From positions 1-64,000 of IMG/VR virus record IMGVR_UViG_3300027769_000020: a stretch of 64,000 nucleotides of DNA; one strand, written 5' to 3'. Source of the stretch: a virus. The notes beneath the pieces are model-generated. The model searched no databases and had not been told where the DNA came from. It saw only the letters and a list, made by a program, of their open reading frames with translations. Numbering within the stretch: the first letter of the stretch is position 1; every line of letters starts with the position of its first letter. Positions 24,497 to 54,270 of this stretch are shown piece by piece. Made by a program: the position numbers and the translations under genes.

Positions 24497-25005
24497 ATCT
24501 TATATTTTAAATTTTAAATAAACCGGATTCTATAATACATTTATTCATTATAGTACAAGAACTAATATATATAATAACATATATACTAATAGACTAATGA
24601 CTATACTCATAGTTTTAGCTATATACTCTTAATACATAGTACTTTAGGGTGTATTTTACAGTGTTTTAACACAGTTTAGATATGAGGATAGTATGACACC
24701 CTACCACTAATACACACTTAAACATACAATTTTTACCATAGACCAAAAACTTAACTACCTGATTATCAGTAAGTGAGTCTACTTTGTCCACCGTGTGGAG
24801 ACAACTTTCTATTATCTTACCAGGTATATTGTGTATATATAATATTATGCTAATGAATCCACAGTGTCTTCTGTTACTTGTGTATAATAGTAAACTGTGT
24901 ATACCATATAGGTAATGAATCCTACTGACCATATAATAACTATATAGACCACAGTAAATAAAAACAATATACCTACGCTTATTACGGCATAGGTATATGT
25001 TATTA

Positions 25006-25302
25006 CTATAATTCTACATCAAAAGTTTTAGCCTGTGGTGCAAAGCTCAAAGAACTTACCACTTCTGCACCTACTCCTGCTTTATGTATCATCCAGCTTG
25101 GCTCTCCGTCCTCTGGATTAAACCAACTTACTACTAAATCATCAGACAGGTTTGTTACGTTTTCTGCTATACGGAAAGTGATTCCCGTATTAGTACTACC
25201 AAATAGTTTACCTGTTTTTGGATTCTTAAGTATGTCTATTTTAGTTAGACCATTAGACATTGCAAATCCGTTAATTGACTGTGTTCTTGTAAATGTGCTC
25301 AT
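25006..25302 (-). CDS. Early cassette protein, paralog A
   Basis: Clearly similar to 25425..25715. Confidence 0.8.
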   Translation of the reverse strand: MSTFTRTQSINGFAMSNGLTKIDILKNPKTGKLFGSTNTGITFRIAENVTNLSDDLVVSWFNPEDGEPSWMIHKAGVGAEVVSSLSFAPQAKTFDVEL

Positions 25303-25424
25303 AATTTTTATTTTTTAGAGTTAAACAATATATATCCATATTAGTTGAAAAATGGATAAAGATGCGTAGCAAAAAAATACACTATAAAAAATAAACCTCT
25401 ACCTATTACGGTAGAGGAATATCT

Positions 25425-25715
25425 TTAGAACTCTTGCATTACAGTTACTGGTGTGAAACTTAAAGTTGAAACAACTTCAGCACCAGCACCTTGTCTGTGT
25501 ATCATGTATGATGGTTCTCCGTCTTCAGGAGAAAACCATGATATTGCTAAATCATTACTTAATGCAGTAATGTCTTTAGCAAGACGCAATGTGTTACCCT
25601 TTGAGTCAACGGCAAATAAGTTACCGTTTTTAGGGTTTTTCAAGATATCAAATTTAGTGATACCGTTTGCTGATGCATAAGCACCAATGTTCTGTGTTTT
25701 AGAAAATGTAGACAT
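25425..25715 (-). CDS. Early cassette protein, paralog B
   Basis: Shares DILKNPK.G.LF and SWF.PEDGEPS.MIH..G.GAEVVS.LSF with 25006. Confidence 0.8.
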   Translation of the reverse strand: MSTFSKTQNIGAYASANGITKFDILKNPKNGNLFAVDSKGNTLRLAKDITALSNDLAISWFSPEDGEPSYMIHRQGAGAEVVSTLSFTPVTVMQEF

Positions 25716-25821
25716 GATCTTTAATTTTTATTAGTTAAACAATTTATATCAATATCAGTTAAAAAATGGATAAGGCTGACGCAGTCAAAAAAAAAGAGAG
25801 GACTTTAATCCCCTCTTGTTA

Positions 25822-26133
25822 TTACTCTTTAATAGGTCTACTGCAAGATAGAATATTCTTCTCTATCTTCTCAATAGTGAACCAAGATGTTCCATCATAC
25901 CCATCAAACTGAATCTCTTCTTCAGGGTGCAGATCTACTTCATAAGGTGTATACCCACCCTCTGCACAAGCTTCTTTAAATAAAGAATCTGAATATACAC
26001 GTTCAAGATCTTCATCCTCAAACATGTAATAACAATGATCAATTATGGCTCTTTTTAATTCTTCAAGTGTATCACACACTGTCCAGAACTCTGCACCATA
26101 ACTACTTTTATTTGCTGTAAATACTTTTTTCAT
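25822..26133 (-). CDS. Early acidic protein
   Basis: Own motif and terminator. Confidence 0.75.
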   Translation of the reverse strand: MKKVFTANKSSYGAEFWTVCDTLEELKRAIIDHCYYMFEDEDLERVYSDSLFKEACAEGGYTPYEVDLHPEEEIQFDGYDGTSWFTIEKIEKNILSCSRPIKE

Positions 26134-26210
26134 AATATATAATTTAAATTGTTAATTATTAATAGTTAAAAAATGGAAAAAAAGAATGGGTATAAACCCA
26201 CTCTTGTTAT

Positions 26211-26507
26211 TTACTTAACATCCCATTCTTGAATATGATAATGATATTCTAATGGGTCTTGCATCATATGTATTTCATTTAAATACATCATCTCTGCACT
26301 TTCATAACTATTGAATGTACCTTTATTATCTTGCATCCAATCTTGAAATGATTTGGGTTCAACTAACTTGTTATCACGTACAATCATTCTATTCATCTCT
26401 GAATTAGCAAGGGCTAATGATGTATGTACACTACATATAACTGTTGAACCGTGTTCACCTGTAACTCTTTCATAAGAGTTAGATAATATTATAAATACTT
26501 TTTCCAT
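26211..26507 (-). CDS. Early hypothetical protein
   Basis: Own motif and terminator. Confidence 0.75.
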   Translation of the reverse strand: MEKVFIILSNSYERVTGEHGSTVICSVHTSLALANSEMNRMIVRDNKLVEPKSFQDWMQDNKGTFNSYESAEMMYLNEIHMMQDPLEYHYHIQEWDVK

Positions 26508-26570
26508 AATCTTTAAGTTTATAATTAGTTAAAAAATGGTAAAATAAGAGAGAGCATAAGCTCCCTCTTG

Positions 26571-26831
26571 TTAAGGTATCAACATTACTGATCTGATATT
26601 TTTATCAGTTAATTCATCATACTCAGTGATTAAGTTGAACCAATGGTTGGCATAACCACTACTGTTCATGCAACGGCAAGTGATTCTTTCTTCTCTTAAA
26701 GAACCATAGAAAGAATAGTTATACTCACCTAATATGAATGAACCTGCATAGATCCATTCATTACCCTTTGCATCACGCATTGGGTGTATTGCTCTTACTG
26801 CATTTTCTAATGCTTCTCTAATCTTTTCCAT
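26571..26831 (-). CDS. Early hypothetical protein
   Basis: Own motif and terminator. Confidence 0.75.
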   Translation of the reverse strand: MEKIREALENAVRAIHPMRDAKGNEWIYAGSFILGEYNYSFYGSLREERITCRCMNSSGYANHWFNLITEYDELTDKNIRSVMLIP

Positions 26832-26880
26832 AACATATATTTTATTGACAGTTAAAAAATGGAAAAAATAAAGGGGTATA

Positions 26881-27054
26881 TTAATCCCCTATAGTCTTAA
26901 GAATCTCCAGCATTTCCTTTAGTGCTGTTCTATAACCAATATGCCAATGCCAATCATTATCAGTTGGTAAATCACCTGATTCTATCCAATGAGTAGTATC
27001 ATCTATATTTTCTTGTAGTGATTCTTTTAATCTTTCTAATTCTTTTATATTCAT
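26881..27054 (-). CDS. Early hypothetical protein (57 aa, start MNIKEL)
   Basis: ATG 27054 lies downstream of motif 27079. Confidence 0.7.
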   Translation of the reverse strand: MNIKELERLKESLQENIDDTTHWIESGDLPTDNDWHWHIGYRTALKEMLEILKTIGD

Positions 27055-27124
27055 AATCTTTAAGTTTAAATTATTAACAGTTAAAAAATGGTTTATTAAA
27101 AAGGGGGTATTATTCCCCCCTTTT

Positions 27125-27496
27125 TTACAAGTTTTTAAACATAGCAACTAAGTCAGCATGGTCATCATTACCATTAATGTCATCTAACTTAGGTAACTCA
27201 GGTAAGTTAACATCTTTGCCTGAATATACATTCCAATCTACTGAACCATAACCTGTACGTTTATCAAAGTTCTCCATGACATATGCATGAAGCATTTTCC
27301 ATATATCATCACAATACATGCCTGTAAGTTTATGATATCCATCAATAGTGAGTCCATCAAATCTTGGTACATAACCCATAGTATCCCATGAGTAACCATC
27401 TTCAAACATTCTTACTTTCTTTGCAACAAATGTTATTACAGGAAAAGCAATAGTGTTTTCTACCTCAATTTTCTTTTTATACGTTATTGTTTTCAT
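27125..27496 (-). CDS. Early hypothetical protein
   Basis: Own motif and terminator. Confidence 0.75.
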   Translation of the reverse strand: MKTITYKKKIEVENTIAFPVITFVAKKVRMFEDGYSWDTMGYVPRFDGLTIDGYHKLTGMYCDDIWKMLHAYVMENFDKRTGYGSVDWNVYSGKDVNLPELPKLDDINGNDDHADLVAMFKNL

Positions 27497-27556
27497 AATA
27501 AATAGTTTTAATTATTAATAGTTATAAAATGGTCCCCGCAGGGGAAATAGTGTGCA

Positions 27557-27700
27557 TCATTTAACACACACTATTTTAAACAGACCTTGAGTATATCCAT
27601 TACTCATAAGTTGTTTCTTTTTCCAAAGGGCTAATGCCTTAGAAGGAAACACAAAGCTCTCTATGAGTCTTGTGTTATTATAGTATTCTAATCTATACAT
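27557..27700 (-). CDS. Early hypothetical protein (47 aa, start MYRLEY)
   Basis: ATG 27700 lies downstream of motif 27719. Confidence 0.7.
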   Translation of the reverse strand: MYRLEYYNNTRLIESFVFPSKALALWKKKQLMSNGYTQGLFKIVCVK

Positions 27701-27931
27701 GGTATTATAATTAATAACAGTTATAAAATGGTAAGACAAAAAAAGAGAGAGAGTATTAAACTCTCTCTCAATGTTGCTGGCTAAAGCCTGTTCCGGTACT
27801 TACATCTCCAAAGCTATAAGGAGAACGCCTCTGACTTGAAACATAATGAGTATTGATAGAGATCATTAGTTCACTCTATCCATAATAGTTAAAAAATGGA
27901 TTAAGACAAAGAGAGATAACCTCTCCTTTCA

Positions 27932-28078
27932 TCAGAAAGGGAGGTCATCTTCATCAATATCATATGTATAATTCTCAAGGCTATCCATAGCCTCAAGAGT
28001 TATACGCATCATATCATTGTAATAGTCTTGCTCCTCTTGGAGCATGATATTAATATCATTGAATTCAGTATCACGCAT
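27932..28078 (-). CDS. 48-aa acidic early peptide ending in EDDLPF (SSB C-tail-like)
   Basis: MRDTEFNDINIMLQEEQDYYNDMMRITLEAMDSLENYTYDIDEDDLPF; missed by ORF track. Confidence 0.75.
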   Translation of the reverse strand: MRDTEFNDINIMLQEEQDYYNDMMRITLEAMDSLENYTYDIDEDDLPF

Positions 28079-28278
28079 AATATATAATTTTAAAGTTAAT
28101 AACAGTTATAAGATGGTTAAATAAAAAAGAGAAACACCCGAAGGTATCTCTCTTGCTTTCTCCTGATCTTGCCAAAGCTAAGCTCAAATGATGTGTGTTT
28201 ACATAACATACACATCATTCATTATAATTTATAAACAGTTATAAGATGGTAAAGAAAAAAACATAAGAGCCTAAGCTC

Positions 28279-28455
28279 TTATTTTTTGTACTTTTCTGAA
28301 TCAGGTGCGGCTAATACACCCATTAATAAGAAGAATGTTAAACCTATGAACACAGCAGCCAGTGTTGTCATGTGTTCAAGTATGCTCTCTGTAGCTGCAT
28401 AGCCAAGCATGATTGTACATGCAATCATAATCTTGTAGTGTAAAGAATATTTCAT
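28279..28455 (-). CDS. 58-aa two-TM membrane protein, first cassette of early array
   Basis: MKYSLHYKIMIACTIMLGYAATESILEHMTTLAAVFIGLTFFLLMGVLAAPDSEKYKK; terminator overlaps stop. Confidence 0.75.
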   Translation of the reverse strand: MKYSLHYKIMIACTIMLGYAATESILEHMTTLAAVFIGLTFFLLMGVLAAPDSEKYKK

Positions 28456-28492
28456 AGTGTGTAATTTTTAATTAAATTAAGTTAGAAAATGG

Positions 28493-28633
28493 TTGCCTTG
28501 CGCAGCAAGCATGGGGGGTACCACCTCTGGCTTCAGGGGGTGGGGGTGTTGTAGTAGGGGTCCATCACAAAGCCCTACATATATAAATTCCCCTAGCCGT
28601 AAGTTCATCACACCTGGGGTGAAAATAACCCGC
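28493..28633. other. GC-rich island at the divergence of the two arms
   Basis: G-tracts G6/G5/G5/G4 and hairpins in an AT-rich genome. Confidence 0.6.
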
Positions 28634-28663
28634 AAAAGTTATTGTGTATTGTACCAATGTTAT

Positions 28664-28735
28664 TATATTTGTACTAATTAGTTTTTAAATTTTATTGTTA
28701 TCATTAATCCTCAGATGTATGTCTGGGGATTTTTG
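28664..28735 (+). ncRNA. Promoter-short U-rich RNA-terminator unit 1
   Basis: TATATTTG, ~30 nt, AATCCTCAGA-TGTATG-TCTGGGGATT-TTT. Confidence 0.45.
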
Positions 28736-28744
28736 TTTAAGATA

Positions 28745-28935
28745 TTACTCCTGTGTTCAAGTAGCACAGGTCCAGTACCAGTTAAGCATCCCATAAGATC
28801 TGCTTGTTGGTCTTCTCTGCTCAGGAAAGTGGAATTGATTTATAGGTGTAAACGCGTTACCTCTATAAGCAACCATATAACTGCAGCAACCCCAAGTAAG
28901 TTTCTCTGATCAGGAAATACTGCTTGGGTTTTTTT
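28745..28935 (+). ncRNA. Candidate structured RNA
   Basis: Serial hairpins ending in CCCAAG..CTTGGG-T7 terminator; no credible ORF. Confidence 0.4.
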
Positions 28936-28964
28936 ATTTATATTTACAAGATAAAATTAATATT

Positions 28965-29303
28965 ATGAGACACGTAGAAAAAGCATTATTAAAATACAAT
29001 GAAGAGAATAATGAGAAATGGACACAGTTCATTCAAATTGAAAATGCAGAGGATGTAAAAGATGTAGCACCTGTAGTAAAATTTACAATACAATCTGATC
29101 CAATTAGTGAAGTAGGGGTTAATGGAGTACAAGCATTAGATATGTTAAAGTATGTTAAGTGTTTATTTGAAAGTTTAAATGATGCATTTCCATGTAAAGA
29201 AAATGTTTTGAGTATTACAAAAATTGAAGAAGCTATTCACTGGCAAGATGCTAGAACTAAAGATAGACAACGTAGACAAGTAGAAGGTCATAATAAAAAG
29301 TAA
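28965..29303 (+). CDS. tad1: Tad1-like immune-signal sponge (anti-Thoeris/CBASS)
   Basis: IQSDPISEVGVNG...D.L......L...FPCKEN...ITKIEEAIHW...RT.DR.RR.VEG matches the recalled Tad1 C-terminal signature. Confidence 0.75.
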   Translation: MRHVEKALLKYNEENNEKWTQFIQIENAEDVKDVAPVVKFTIQSDPISEVGVNGVQALDMLKYVKCLFESLNDAFPCKENVLSITKIEEAIHWQDARTKDRQRRQVEGHNKK

Positions 29304-46297: not shown

Positions 46298-48502
46298 ATG
46301 GAAAATATATATACAGATATACCTACTTGGGATAATGGTACTTGGACTACTACATCTTTTGAATCCAGAAAAGATTTTGGTGACTTTGTATTATCTATAT
46401 TTAAAGAACCAGGTCAATATGAGTTTGATGAAGTAAGTAATAAGGTATTTAATTCTGAGTCAACTAAATTCAATAAAGACAAAGTATATTGTGTAGCCCC
46501 ATTTAAATCTAAAGATTTTATTAACTACTGGGATGATCAAAAAGCTAAGTGTAGATTAGGTTTAATTGTTAAGAATGATAATAAGACTTGGTACCTTACT
46601 AGAGATTATTACATGTGGTTAAACTTCTTACCTATCTTTGATAAGGAGGAGCAAAACTTTGGGTTTGCTAAAATCAGGGATGCACAATATCATATGGCCC
46701 TGTATGAAATACTAGCAGAGATAAACTACATGCATGTAGCTATTCTTAAAAAACGTCAGATAGCATCATCATACTTTCATGCAGGTAAACTTATTAATCA
46801 GTTATGGTTTGAGGCCGGTGTAACTTTAAAGATGGGAGCATCACTTAAAGATTACATTAATGAGAAAGGTACATGGAAATTCTTATCAGAGTATGCAGCA
46901 TTCTTGAATGAACATACAGCATGGTATAGACCAATGTCACCAGATAAAGTAATGATGTGGCAACAAAAGATTGAGGTCAGAAAAGGAGACAGAAAAACTG
47001 AAGCAGGTTTAAAAGGTACTATGCAAGGTATGTCTTTTGAGAAAGATCCAACAAATGGTGTAGGGGGTCCGGTTAAATACTTCTTCCATGAGGAGGCAGG
47101 AATTGCTCCAAAGATGGATACAACATTTGGTTATATCAAACCAGCACTTAAATCAGGTATGATTACTACAGGATTATTTATTGCTGCAGGATCAGTAGGG
47201 GATTTGGATCAGTGTGAACCACTAAAGAAAATGATTCTGGATCCATTAAGTAATGATATATACGCAGTAGAAACTAATCTTATTGATAAAGAAGGTACAA
47301 TAGGTAAGTCAGGTTTATTTATACCTGAACAATGGTCAATGCCACCATACATAGATGACTATGGTAATAGTCTAGTAGAAGAAGCATTAATTGCTCTTGA
47401 TGAATTCTTTGCTGAAATTAAAAGAAACAAAGAAGCTAAAGATTATCAACTTGAGGTATCACAGCATCCAAGAAATATAGAAGAAGCATTTGCATTTAGA
47501 AAAGCATCTAAGTTTCCACCACATCTTGTTAATGCTCAGATAAAGAGAATTGAAGAGAAAGAATACTCATCAGAGTATTTAGATATATCTAGAGATGATA
47601 CAGGTAAAGTAAAAGTAGCATCTACTAATAAGTTACCTATTGCTGAATTCCCTATATCTAAGAAGACAGAAGATAAAACTGGTACATTAGTAGTATGGGA
47701 AAGACCCGTTGCAGATCCGTCATTTGGTATGTATTATGCTAGTATTGACCCCGTGGCAGAAGGTAAAACTACTACATCTGAATCATTATGTTCTATATAT
47801 GTAGTAAAAGCACCTATAGAAGTTACTAAGATAACTAACGGTGAAGCAGAAACATATTTAGAAAGAGATAAAATAGTAGCTGCATGGTGTGGTAGGTTTG
47901 ATGATATCAATAAAACACATGAGAGACTGGAGTTAATTATAGAATGGTACAACGCCTGGACAATAGTTGAGAATAATATTTCTCAATTTATTAACCATAT
48001 GATTAACAGAAAGAAACAAAGATATCTTGTACCTAGAAACCAGATTGTATTCTTAAAAGATGTAGGTGCTAATGCTAATGTATTTCAAGAATATGGTTGG
48101 AGAAATACGGGCACATTATTTAAGAATCACATGATCAGTTATACTATTGAATATCTTACTGAAGAAATAGATCATATACAGAAAGATGATGGTACTACTG
48201 TAAAGATACATTATGGTGTAGAAAGAATACCAGATATTATGTTGTTAAAAGAAATGCAAGCTTACCAGGATGGTGTCAACGTGGATAGGTTGGTGTCCTT
48301 TGCTGCACTTGTTTCTTTTATTAAAATACAACAAGCTAACATAGGTTATACCAAAAGAGTAGTAATGGATGAAGCAAGTAAAAACTTGCAAAAGTCTGAA
48401 AATTTGTATAAATTAAATAGTAGTCCTTTTAGACATATGGGTAGAAGTGGTCTTGGTCCAAATCAAAAGTTAAACAGATCACCTTTTAAAAATTTAAAAT
48501 AA
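46298..48502 (+). CDS. terL: Terminase large subunit
   Basis: LKKRQIASSY Walker A-like; FFHEEAG Walker B; ASIDPV; VENN; NVDR. Confidence 0.9.
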   Translation: MENIYTDIPTWDNGTWTTTSFESRKDFGDFVLSIFKEPGQYEFDEVSNKVFNSESTKFNKDKVYCVAPFKSKDFINYWDDQKAKCRLGLIVKNDNKTWYLTRDYYMWLNFLPIFDKEEQNFGFAKIRDAQYHMALYEILAEINYMHVAILKKRQIASSYFHAGKLINQLWFEAGVTLKMGASLKDYINEKGTWKFLSEYAAFLNEHTAWYRPMSPDKVMMWQQKIEVRKGDRKTEAGLKGTMQGMSFEKDPTNGVGGPVKYFFHEEAGIAPKMDTTFGYIKPALKSGMITTGLFIAAGSVGDLDQCEPLKKMILDPLSNDIYAVETNLIDKEGTIGKSGLFIPEQWSMPPYIDDYGNSLVEEALIALDEFFAEIKRNKEAKDYQLEVSQHPRNIEEAFAFRKASKFPPHLVNAQIKRIEEKEYSSEYLDISRDDTGKVKVASTNKLPIAEFPISKKTEDKTGTLVVWERPVADPSFGMYYASIDPVAEGKTTTSESLCSIYVVKAPIEVTKITNGEAETYLERDKIVAAWCGRFDDINKTHERLELIIEWYNAWTIVENNISQFINHMINRKKQRYLVPRNQIVFLKDVGANANVFQEYGWRNTGTLFKNHMISYTIEYLTEEIDHIQKDDGTTVKIHYGVERIPDIMLLKEMQAYQDGVNVDRLVSFAALVSFIKIQQANIGYTKRVVMDEASKNLQKSENLYKLNSSPFRHMGRSGLGPNQKLNRSPFKNLK

Positions 48503-52653: not shown

Positions 52654-54270
52654 ATGGCAACTCCAGTATTAAATAATGGTATATTCCTGCGTGATACGGC
52701 ATACAATGCTAGTTCACATGTGGATTCATACCATTTACAAAACATGCTAAAAGATGCAGAACCAATGGATTTAGGTCCAGTAGACTTATGGGCTATGGCT
52801 CAAAAAGTTGAAATGCCTTTATACCAGTTGTCTTCTTTTGGTGGAAAAAATGTTATCAATGTGGATAACGCAAGAGGTGAGTACAAATGGCAAACTCCAG
52901 TATCTATTGATCTACCTTACATTGTAGAAGATATTGAACCAGGTAATACTGCTAAAGGTATTGAAGGAACTACTTTCAAAATCAAGTTGAATAAACGTGA
53001 GTTTGGACATGGTGATATCATTACTTATGACAAGTATAATGGTGTTGAGATGTACATTACTGCTGATGATATCTTACCTATTGGTGATGGTTTCATCTAT
53101 ACAGTACAGTTAGTTAACAATGATAACTATAAGTACATTGATAATGCTTACTTGGCTAATGGTACTAAAGTATTCCGTAAAGGTTCTGCTAGAGGTGAGT
53201 ATGGTGAGAGATTCTCTGACATCCAAACTAACACAGGATTCCGTGAGTACTACAACTACGTTGGTGGTGCTGAAGCACACGTTCATTACTCTATCTCTTC
53301 TAGAGCAGATTTAATGATTAAAGGTGGTATGAATGCAGATGGTACAGTTCCTGTAACTGAAATCTGGAGATCACACTTAAAAGGATTAGATCCATCTATT
53401 TCATCTTTAGATGATATGGTTAAAGTAATGGGTAAAGACTCAGTTAAAAAAGCATTTGATAATGGTGATTTATCAAGAACTTTCTTAACTAATATGGAGG
53501 CTGCACACTTAACTAAGATTGCATCTGATATTGAGACTTACTTAATGTGGGGTCATGGTGGTAGAGTACGTCAAGACGGACCAGATGATGTAAGATTATC
53601 TGTAGGTTTATGGAAACAGTTAGATAACTCTTTCAAACGTATCTATAACAAAAACAACTTTAACTTAGACTTATTCAGAGGAGAGTTATACAACTTCTTC
53701 AATGGTAAGGTTGAGTTCCAAGGACCAGATCCTAAACGTCAACTTGTTGTACAAACAGGTATGGGTGGTATGAGAATGGTTAATGAAGCTATTAAACAAG
53801 AAGCTATTTCTTCAGGTTTATTAATTCAAGCTGCTGATATCGGTGCTATCACTGGTAAAGGTATGGACTTAAACTTTGGATTTGCTTATACATCTTACGT
53901 TATTCCATTCTTGGCTAATGTTAAGTTTGTATTGAACCCAGCATTTGACAATGTTCATACTAATGATATTGAGAACCCAATCATTGATGGTTTCCCATTA
54001 TCTTCTTACTCATTCATTATTTTTGATATCACAGATAATACTAATGACAACATTTACATGTTGAAATTATCTTGGGATAATCAATTGAAATGGTGGTACC
54101 AAAATGGAACAATGGACTACATGGGTAGATCTCAAGGATTCCAGTCTTCAGGACAATTCAACGGTTACCGTGTAATGATGTCTCAAACAATGCCTGCTAT
54201 TTGGGTTAAAGATCCAACTAAAGTATTGAAAATTGTTATGAGAAACCCAATTACAGGTGGATCATTCTAA
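52654..54270 (+). CDS. Major capsid protein (crAss-like)
   Basis: Synteny; strong codon bias; GL..QL, TG.GG; followed by terminator. Confidence 0.85.
   Translation: MATPVLNNGIFLRDTAYNASSHVDSYHLQNMLKDAEPMDLGPVDLWAMAQKVEMPLYQLSSFGGKNVINVDNARGEYKWQTPVSIDLPYIVEDIEPGNTAKGIEGTTFKIKLNKREFGHGDIITYDKYNGVEMYITADDILPIGDGFIYTVQLVNNDNYKYIDNAYLANGTKVFRKGSARGEYGERFSDIQTNTGFREYYNYVGGAEAHVHYSISSRADLMIKGGMNADGTVPVTEIWRSHLKGLDPSISSLDDMVKVMGKDSVKKAFDNGDLSRTFLTNMEAAHLTKIASDIETYLMWGHGGRVRQDGPDDVRLSVGLWKQLDNSFKRIYNKNNFNLDLFRGELYNFFNGKVEFQGPDPKRQLVVQTGMGGMRMVNEAIKQEAISSGLLIQAADIGAITGKGMDLNFGFAYTSYVIPFLANVKFVLNPAFDNVHTNDIENPIIDGFPLSSYSFIIFDITDNTNDNIYMLKLSWDNQLKWWYQNGTMDYMGRSQGFQSSGQFNGYRVMMSQTMPAIWVKDPTKVLKIVMRNPITGGSF

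Follow-up and report, generated by a model that had tools for sequence, protein, structure and literature searches.

The DNA considered here, referred to as the window, is a stretch of 64,000 nucleotides (nt) that forms the first 64 kb of the viral record IMGVR_UViG_3300027769_000020 (91,527 bp; G+C 31%; CheckV completeness 76%). It holds an array of twelve small early gene cassettes, read leftward, and, next to the linear motif of four of these cassettes, four mini-hairpins with three-base loops that are the subject of this analysis. The source phage is assigned to the crAss-like phages because its portal, large terminase (TerL) and capsid (MCP) proteins match PHROG families and because a 1772-amino-acid open reading frame (ORF) just beyond the window matches the Crassvirus muzzle family PF25731 (E 3.5e-32); tblastn matches of the portal are limited, at 22-32% identity, to crAss-like phages and a small number of relatives. 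Judged by these proteins, it is a distant, uncultured freshwater member of that group. Megablast of the hairpin and array region against phage records gave no match, and an Rfam search of 24800-29000 gave none above noise. The array and its hairpins lie as follows.

25343..28492, - strand: array of 12 early cassettes, each made up of a terminator, the motif CCATYTTWTAACT (as read on the coding strand of the leftward genes), a short leader and a small gene
25363..25371, + strand: class A mini-hairpin TGC-GTA-GCA, 7 nt before the motif at 25343-25355 in the direction of transcription
25777..25787, + strand: class A mini-hairpin TGAC-GCA-GTCA, 7 nt from the motif at 25757-25769
27533..27545, + strand: class B mini-hairpin TCCCC-GCA-GGGGA, flush with the motif at 27520-27532
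28497..28509, + strand: class C mini-hairpin CTTGC-GCA-GCAAG, 4 nt from the first motif of the array at 28480-28492 and adjoining a G-rich island

On the + strand the motif reads AGTT[AG]WAARATGG, and its 12 copies, all between 25343 and 28492, are the only ones in the 91.5-kb genome. In the direction of transcription, each copy comes after the terminator of the preceding small gene and before a leader of 13-41 nt that belongs to the next. Measured from the end of the motif, the loop centres of the hairpins at 25363, 25777, 27533 and 28497 lie at 12, 13, 7 and 11 nt. The hairpin at 25363 directly adjoins the T-run of the upstream terminator, and that at 25777 is followed by A9 and then by a terminator stem at 25797-25817; true terminators of the array have loops of the RNA type, such as UUCG at 28104. 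A preliminary description of this DNA had reported the four hairpins as template-strand structures with a GNA loop closed by C-G, separate from the terminators. Their coordinates are exact, all four are on the + strand, which is the template for the leftward genes, and loop and closing pair are as described in each. Separation from the terminators holds for 25363 and 25777, where the hairpin sits between the T-run of the upstream terminator and the motif, and is trivial for 28497, upstream of which there is no gene; the statement is open to doubt for 27533, whose cassette has no other GC-rich terminator stem. Just beyond the class B hairpin, an AT-rich 14-bp hairpin (AATAGTGTG...CACACTATT, 27546-27580) overlaps the stop codon of the ORF at 27557-27739; it is near-identical in all relatives (23 loci), with conservation far above that of its surroundings.

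Hairpins of this kind are rare in the genome and concentrated beside the motif. The whole 91.5-kb genome has five perfect C-GNA-G triloops on stems of 3 bp or more on the + strand and one on the - strand, against 1.7 per strand expected from first-order Markov simulation. Of the five on the + strand, four lie in the 360 nt that immediately flank the 12 motifs on their right (binomial P about 1e-9), none of them more than 13 nt from an early motif; two of the four stem from paralogous cassettes and are not independent, and with three independent events the clustering is still far from chance. The same strand bias is seen in 12 non-redundant close relatives (167 kb), in which the motif strand carries 30 C-GNA-G hairpins within 30 nt of a motif and 7 elsewhere, and the opposite strand none near a motif and 3 elsewhere. 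Likewise, all three + strand C-GNA-G hairpins of a complete relative (G001, 117.9 kb) adjoin the motif. The sole other C-GNA-G hairpins of the window's genome, at 47261-47269 (+) and 53253-53263 (-), are within long ORFs (those of terminase and capsid) and are taken as chance occurrences.

Relatives were collected by DNA-pattern scans with anchors that exclude the hairpins, and consist of uncultured IMG/VR viral records and JGI metagenome contigs. About 24 contigs carry the same motif array and keep the hairpins on the same strand; hairpins occur in 4 of the 12 cassettes here, and typically in the last two of the array in relatives. Class A, represented in the window by 25363 and 25777, precedes paralogous genes of about 97 amino acids. 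Its 22 distinct sequences all have a loop that starts with G and ends with A, with T, C, A or G between the two; the stems (TGC/GCA, TGAC/GTCA, TGGC/GCCA, TGCT/AGCA) are complementary in every case, the closing pair is C-G in all but one stem type (T-A), and the 7-nt spacer varies freely. Orthologues of the hairpin at 25363 have the loops GTA, GAA, GGA and GCA, and the stem of 25777 appears in relatives as TGGC/GCCA, TGCT/AGCA or TGC/GCA. In class B the stem CCCC/GGGG is kept with a loop of GCA, GAA or AAA; in class C, at the first cassette, the stem CTTGC/GCAAG is invariant and the loop is GCA, GTA, AGA or ACA.

The covariation for which the preliminary description had proposed to search in related genomes is clearly present: Watson-Crick stems covary around a loop in which G and A are invariant in class A, and around G/A-N-A in classes B and C. 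When 28 distinct hairpins from all clades are aligned without gaps, 89% of cells are paired, a figure to be read with the fact that the hairpins were partly selected for at least 3 bp of pairing, so that the inner pairs are paired by construction and only the diversity of pair types is not. That diversity is considerable. The two middle stem pairs are altered on both sides in 15-17 of the 28 sequences, no cell departs from the commonest pair on one side alone, and there are no G-T or G-U intermediates; the covariation score of 0.78 compares with 0.19 in shuffles (none of 500 reaches it) and with at most 0.19 in slid registers. The motif itself differs between cassettes of the two kinds, its position 5 being A in 59 of 60 distinct hairpin-less cassettes but, of 21 class A cassettes, in only 12, the other 43% having G, C or T; these counts are drawn from related sequences, for which no formal probability is given. 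Such relaxation fits compensation by the hairpin, whose presence might loosen the constraint on the motif.

The association extends well beyond this clade, and the link to more distant viruses is provided by the island next to the class C hairpin.

28510..28640, + strand: G-tract island at the point of arm divergence, immediately upstream of the class C hairpin

The island opens with the 16-mer CATGGGGGGTACCACC, followed by further G-runs and a GGACCCACC-like box. Those 16 nt turn up again in over 30 additional viral contigs without the window's motif, whose early motifs are different. In a distant set of 28 AT-rich contigs sharing the 16-mer, every C-GNA-G hairpin was listed: nearly each contig has one to three, all on the strand of the island and none on the other. 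They are placed in a leftward array of early type, and each is preceded by the clade's own repeated motif (AAAGCTGTA, AGAGCTGAAT, AAAGYTGCTAA, TGAGTGGA and others) and by a spacer that ends A-R-G-C(Y); the stems are GCC, TGCC, GTGC, TCAC, TTTCC and TTGCC. Hairpin cassettes are a minority in every clade, and are usually the two farthest from the G-rich island. The island itself is widely conserved; it might form a G-quadruplex on the template strand of the early genes, mark an end or entry site of the genome, or correspond to an RNA. On one distant contig (L130, 83-340, oriented) the most distal hairpin cassette points into about 260 ORF-free nt with repeated TTGACAG and ATTGATTAT words, a stretch that may be an origin or a non-coding RNA.

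Two neighbours, the motif and the upstream terminator, could in principle hold the hairpin in place, and distances across clades distinguish them. Counted from the T of the invariant TG in the motif, the stem begins after 10-15 nt in the A-type elements of five clades, after 7-8 nt in class C and after 3-5 nt in class B, and the loop centre lies 9-20 nt away across elements. In class A of the window's clade the hairpin directly meets the upstream T-run (0 nt; 23 of 41 distinct elements), whereas other clades have 2, 6-7 or 23 nt between the two or show no A-run within 40 nt. Since the distance to the motif is held at 10-15 nt and that to the T-run is not constant, the hairpin travels with the motif and not with the terminator.

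Whether the element acts as DNA or as RNA can also be judged. The conserved loop letters of the two strands are not alike: the template has G and A, the mRNA-sense strand U-N-C. Because it lies after the U-run of the upstream terminator and before the motif, the class A hairpin would be transcribed by read-through only. The geometry of an intrinsic terminator, a GC-rich stem with a U-run directly after it, is absent from class A, in which the U-run precedes the hairpin, and from class C, which has no upstream gene; the class B stem, in RNA sense, is followed by A-CCAUUUU. Covariation restricted to Watson-Crick pairs fits a DNA element, and a d(GNA) triloop with C-G closure is a very stable DNA fold whose stability depends on the closing pair (PMC3201870). 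On this comparative evidence the mini-hairpins are best explained as cis-acting DNA structures of the template strand rather than as RNA elements.

The preliminary description had supposed an RNA polymerase (RNAP) of crAss type, unrelated to that of phage N4, and the clade does encode one. In the virion module of the complete relative G001, an ORF of 4118 amino acids (90729-103082) aligns with g066 of phi14:2, the catalytic virion RNAP (E 6e-23, 24% identity over 522 amino acids), and the alignment includes the catalytic DFDxD (KSGADFDVDKL versus KTGSDFDIDKM); this gp66-like two-barrel enzyme is unrelated to the T7-like enzyme of N4. The window's record ends before the gene for the gp66 homologue, and searches for a virion RNAP within that record (PDB sequence searches, PHROGs, Pfam, tblastn and a protein atlas) gave only the muzzle protein. 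The T7-like RNAP domain PF00940 has no match in the window's record and five related records, which is weak evidence, as control genomes gave none either. A DFDGD in the ORF at 80222-82552 was considered as a catalytic motif and rejected, as it belongs to an acidic low-complexity stretch. Recoding of stop codons was likewise rejected for three giant ORFs in the same frame (1587, 777 and 887 amino acids; genome 75458-85216, beyond the window, locus L171): the single stops that separate them are all TAA, the usual stop here, and the arrangement is probably coincidence. The study of phi14:2 reports efficient transcription by gp66 of DNA that is single-stranded or denatured and poor transcription of double-stranded DNA, together with early genes that are rifampicin-resistant and early transcripts that share no detectable upstream motif (bioRxiv 10.1101/2020.03.07.982082).

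Four genes stand directly behind the hairpin cassettes of the window.

25006..25302, - strand: class A paralogue P0002, 98 amino acids, behind the hairpin cassette at 25343, the last of the array
25425..25715, - strand: class A gene P0001, 96 amino acids, behind the hairpin cassette at 25757
27125..27496, - strand: gene of 123 amino acids behind the class B hairpin cassette
28279..28455, - strand: hydrophobic gene of 58 amino acids behind the first (class C) cassette

A structure model of the class A protein (predicted local distance difference test, pLDDT, 65) finds no strong match, and its weak ones are mainly to domains of the OB type (E of 0.3 or more, Z no higher than 4.0). One hairpin cassette in the distant clades is directly followed by a gene from a family of 95-136 amino acids (alignment A3: L127, L130, L131, L152, L153, L129, L133, L136, L138), whose model (pLDDT 75) matches OB domains with a Foldseek probability of 1.0, E about 1e-3 and a template-modelling (TM) score of about 0.5. 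The matches include bacterial, archaeal, mitochondrial and human single-stranded DNA-binding proteins (SSBs) as well as the OB domains of RPA, PriB and Teb1, and the proteins of the family end in acidic, aromatic C-terminal tails. Profile comparison of P0001 and P0002 with this SSB-like family showed no similarity. At one locus (L162), a 113-amino-acid early protein behind a class B hairpin ends in DDDLPF, the C-terminal tip of bacterial SSBs, and a 48-amino-acid peptide at 27932-28078 of the window has a similar SSB-type tail according to the preliminary description. By analogy with the SSB requirement of N4, the presence of SSB-like genes beside hairpins is suggestive of a role for such proteins.

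What these elements might do is most readily considered against the early promoters P1-P3 of N4, which are read by an injected virion RNAP, in which the same C-GNA-G features drive both hairpin extrusion and promoter use, and which depend on negative supercoiling and on host SSB (PMC4496689). The preliminary description had envisaged a convergent hairpin-promoter or polymerase-loading signal. Because of the covariation, the strand specificity and the gp66-like RNAP, a convergent template-strand hairpin coupled to the early start signal is the best reading of the data; the specific role, whether promoter or loading signal, stays putative. In the form we favour, which we hold with about even confidence, the hairpins would be the structured-DNA module of an early start signal, helping to open or present the template strand to an injected gp66-type polymerase and possibly contacted by it. 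The start signal would then be composite, consisting of a clade-specific motif with an invariant TG, a short spacer usually ending A-R-G-C(Y), and a stem-loop with a stem of 3-5 bp, C-G closure and a G/A-N-A triloop. A GC-rich mini-hairpin amid very AT-rich DNA, with its sheared G-A loop, could nucleate or stabilise strand opening just upstream of the motif; the opened template strand would be presented to the injected gp66-type virion RNAP, in keeping with the preference for single-stranded templates in the phi14:2 model. The polymerase may also contact the hairpin directly, and an SSB-like early protein of the phage may assist, as host SSB does for N4. In this scheme the motif would presumably be the promoter of the virion RNAP, and the hairpin would form in vivo and promote initiation.

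Several observations weigh against this reading. Eight of the 12 cassettes here, and most of those in relatives, have no hairpin; because of this, the hairpin is not required for initiation at the motif. The spacing between hairpin and motif is loose and differs between classes, with 0, 4 or 7 nt between motif and stem. The loop of classes B and C is purine-N-A rather than strict GNA, with A often as its first base, and the stems of 3-4 bp (class A) and 5 bp (classes B and C) are short beside the 5-7 bp of N4. A generic nearest-neighbour model, which has no GNA-loop term, gives -1 to -3.8 kcal/mol, equal on both strands. The class B hairpin may double as, or be, the terminator stem of its cassette. 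Finally, the first 50 kb of phi14:2 (left-end rightward genes) has no template-strand C-GNA-G hairpins, and the element is therefore lineage-specific and not universal in crAss-like phages.

A bolder version of the favoured reading is correspondingly more tentative: possibly, motif and template-strand C-GNA-G hairpin together constitute the promoter architecture of the crAss-type (gp66, two-barrel) virion RNAPs in this lineage, independent in origin of that of N4, with an SSB-like phage cofactor and a start near the invariant TG. If an N4-like geometry held, the start would lie at or beside this TG and the transcript could begin with A, which would fit the ATP requirement of gp66 mentioned in a figure legend (bioRxiv 10.1101/2020.03.07.982082).

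Other functions must be weighed alongside. That the hairpin is an operator, a single-stranded or structured DNA site for a regulator such as the downstream SSB-like early protein, which would serve auto-regulation or the timing of a few cassettes, seems unlikely, although it accounts for the confinement of hairpins to some of the cassettes, in general the two at the end of the array, for the conserved flank A-R-G-C(Y) adjoining the stem, and for the distant-clade gene directly behind a hairpin cassette, which is predicted to fold as an SSB-type OB domain with an acidic, aromatic tail. The class A proteins of the window, however, show only weak, non-significant OB-like matches and no profile similarity to the SSB-like family, and the class B and C hairpins precede unrelated genes; further, an operator overlaps the proposed structured-DNA module of the start signal rather than excluding it. 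Less probable again is a function in termination or insulation, in which the hairpin would be a roadblock or back-up terminator against read-through after the upstream U-run, or, in class B, the stem of the upstream terminator itself followed by CCAUUUU. The case is strongest for class B, whose cassette has no other GC-rich terminator and whose hairpin is followed by A-CCAUUUUAUAAC, and it gains from class A of the window's clade, where 23 of 41 distinct elements abut the terminator T-run at 0 nt. Against it, the distance to the T-run varies in other clades (2, 6-7 or 23 nt, or none in 40) while that to the motif stays at 10-15 nt, class C has no upstream gene, and the class A hairpin comes after the U-run with the next U-run at least 9 nt past the stem, which is not intrinsic-terminator geometry. 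Nor would its RNA loop, U-N-C, be a known stabilising loop, the array's true terminators using loops of the UUCG type, and variants compatible with G-U pairing are absent.

A role in replication, as a single-strand signal in the manner of a priming or origin hairpin of the G4 type or of a Streptomyces telomere, has only a small probability. GNA mini-hairpins do have such roles elsewhere. Hairpins of the sequence d(GCGAAGC) are found at the complementary-strand origins of G4-type phages. The telomeres of Streptomyces contain GNA-looped palindromes (PMC5449611). The most distal hairpin cassette of L130 faces an ORF-free stretch with repeated TTGACAG, and SSB-like genes are adjacent to hairpins. 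Yet the hairpins, one to a cassette, go with gene-proximal motifs and precede small genes, and in every clade examined they are on the strand that serves as template for transcription of these genes. No origin features came to light in the window, where no search aimed at them was made. Scarcely credible is the view that they are functionless, whether as chance palindromes or as passengers of duplicated cassettes. Their stems are very short and two of the window's four come from paralogous cassettes, but this view is contradicted by the comparative data: their rarity genome-wide and clustering beside motifs, the compensatory changes in stems, and the invariant G and A of the loop across clades with differing motifs and stems. 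Two further candidates were dropped. An integron attC-like recombination site would have to do without an integrase, and the hairpins occur in few cassettes; a palindromic operator of double-stranded DNA is at odds with half-sites that covary rather than being conserved and with conserved letters that are asymmetric.

The implications of the favoured reading reach beyond this phage. Promoters of crAss-like virion RNAPs are unknown, the only experimental study having found no motif shared upstream of early transcripts. The present lineage has a candidate signal that is sharply defined and backed by comparison between relatives: a short motif to which a structured-DNA module may be added. If the interpretation is right, two unrelated families of virion-delivered polymerase, the T7-like enzyme of N4 and the two-barrel enzyme of crAss-like phages, would have converged on a template-strand hairpin with a sheared G-A triloop, and early genes could be annotated by this means in uncultured crAss-like phages.

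Among known systems, that of phi14:2 gp66 is nearest in its polymerase, which is homologous, in the small ORFs that make up its early genes, and in its enzyme's preference for single-stranded templates in vitro; it differs in having no common early upstream motif and no template-strand C-GNA-G hairpins in its first 50 kb. The extraordinary stability of d(GC-GNA-GC) DNA mini-hairpins was reportedly established in the work of Hirao and Yoshizawa. The elements described here follow the same rule of loop and closing pair, tolerate any middle base and share a property that is strand-specific (PMC3201870). The d(GC-GNA-GC) hairpins, however, are a physical class and not a genetic element, and the A-N-A loops of classes B and C are non-canonical. 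A further parallel is provided by a phage two-barrel RNAP that is not carried in the virion. The AR9 enzyme reads a short template-strand motif and can initiate on single-stranded DNA. In AR9, unlike here, the signal is a linear motif with deoxyuridine and has no hairpin.

The likeness to N4 is the most extensive. In both systems a template-strand hairpin with a 3-nt loop lies upstream of early genes and is closed by a C-G pair; in N4 the 5' G and 3' A of the loop form a sheared pair, and these letters are kept in the window's four. Both have stem bases that are unconserved apart from their complementarity, few copies per genome, and a virion-delivered polymerase, and the involvement of SSB in N4 has its counterpart in the SSB-like genes that adjoin hairpins in the distant clades. 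The differences are equally concrete. The polymerase is gp66-like and two-barrel here but T7-like and single-subunit in N4. No stem base beyond the closing pair is conserved here, whereas N4 has -8G. At the loop centre the window's hairpins have T, C, C and C; overall the base is mostly C or T, and relatives show all four, whereas N4 needs a purine there (-11 A/G, contacted by the polymerase). This lineage also has a separate 13-nt linear motif, hairpin-less in most cassettes, and variable spacing, in contrast to the fixed 11 nt from loop centre to +1 in N4. Because the loop purine is not kept, the stems are shorter, no T7-like polymerase was found, the linear motif mostly stands without a hairpin and the spacing varies, the system is not a member of the N4 class, N4-like though it is in its strand, its loop rule, its covarying stem and its virion-delivered polymerase.

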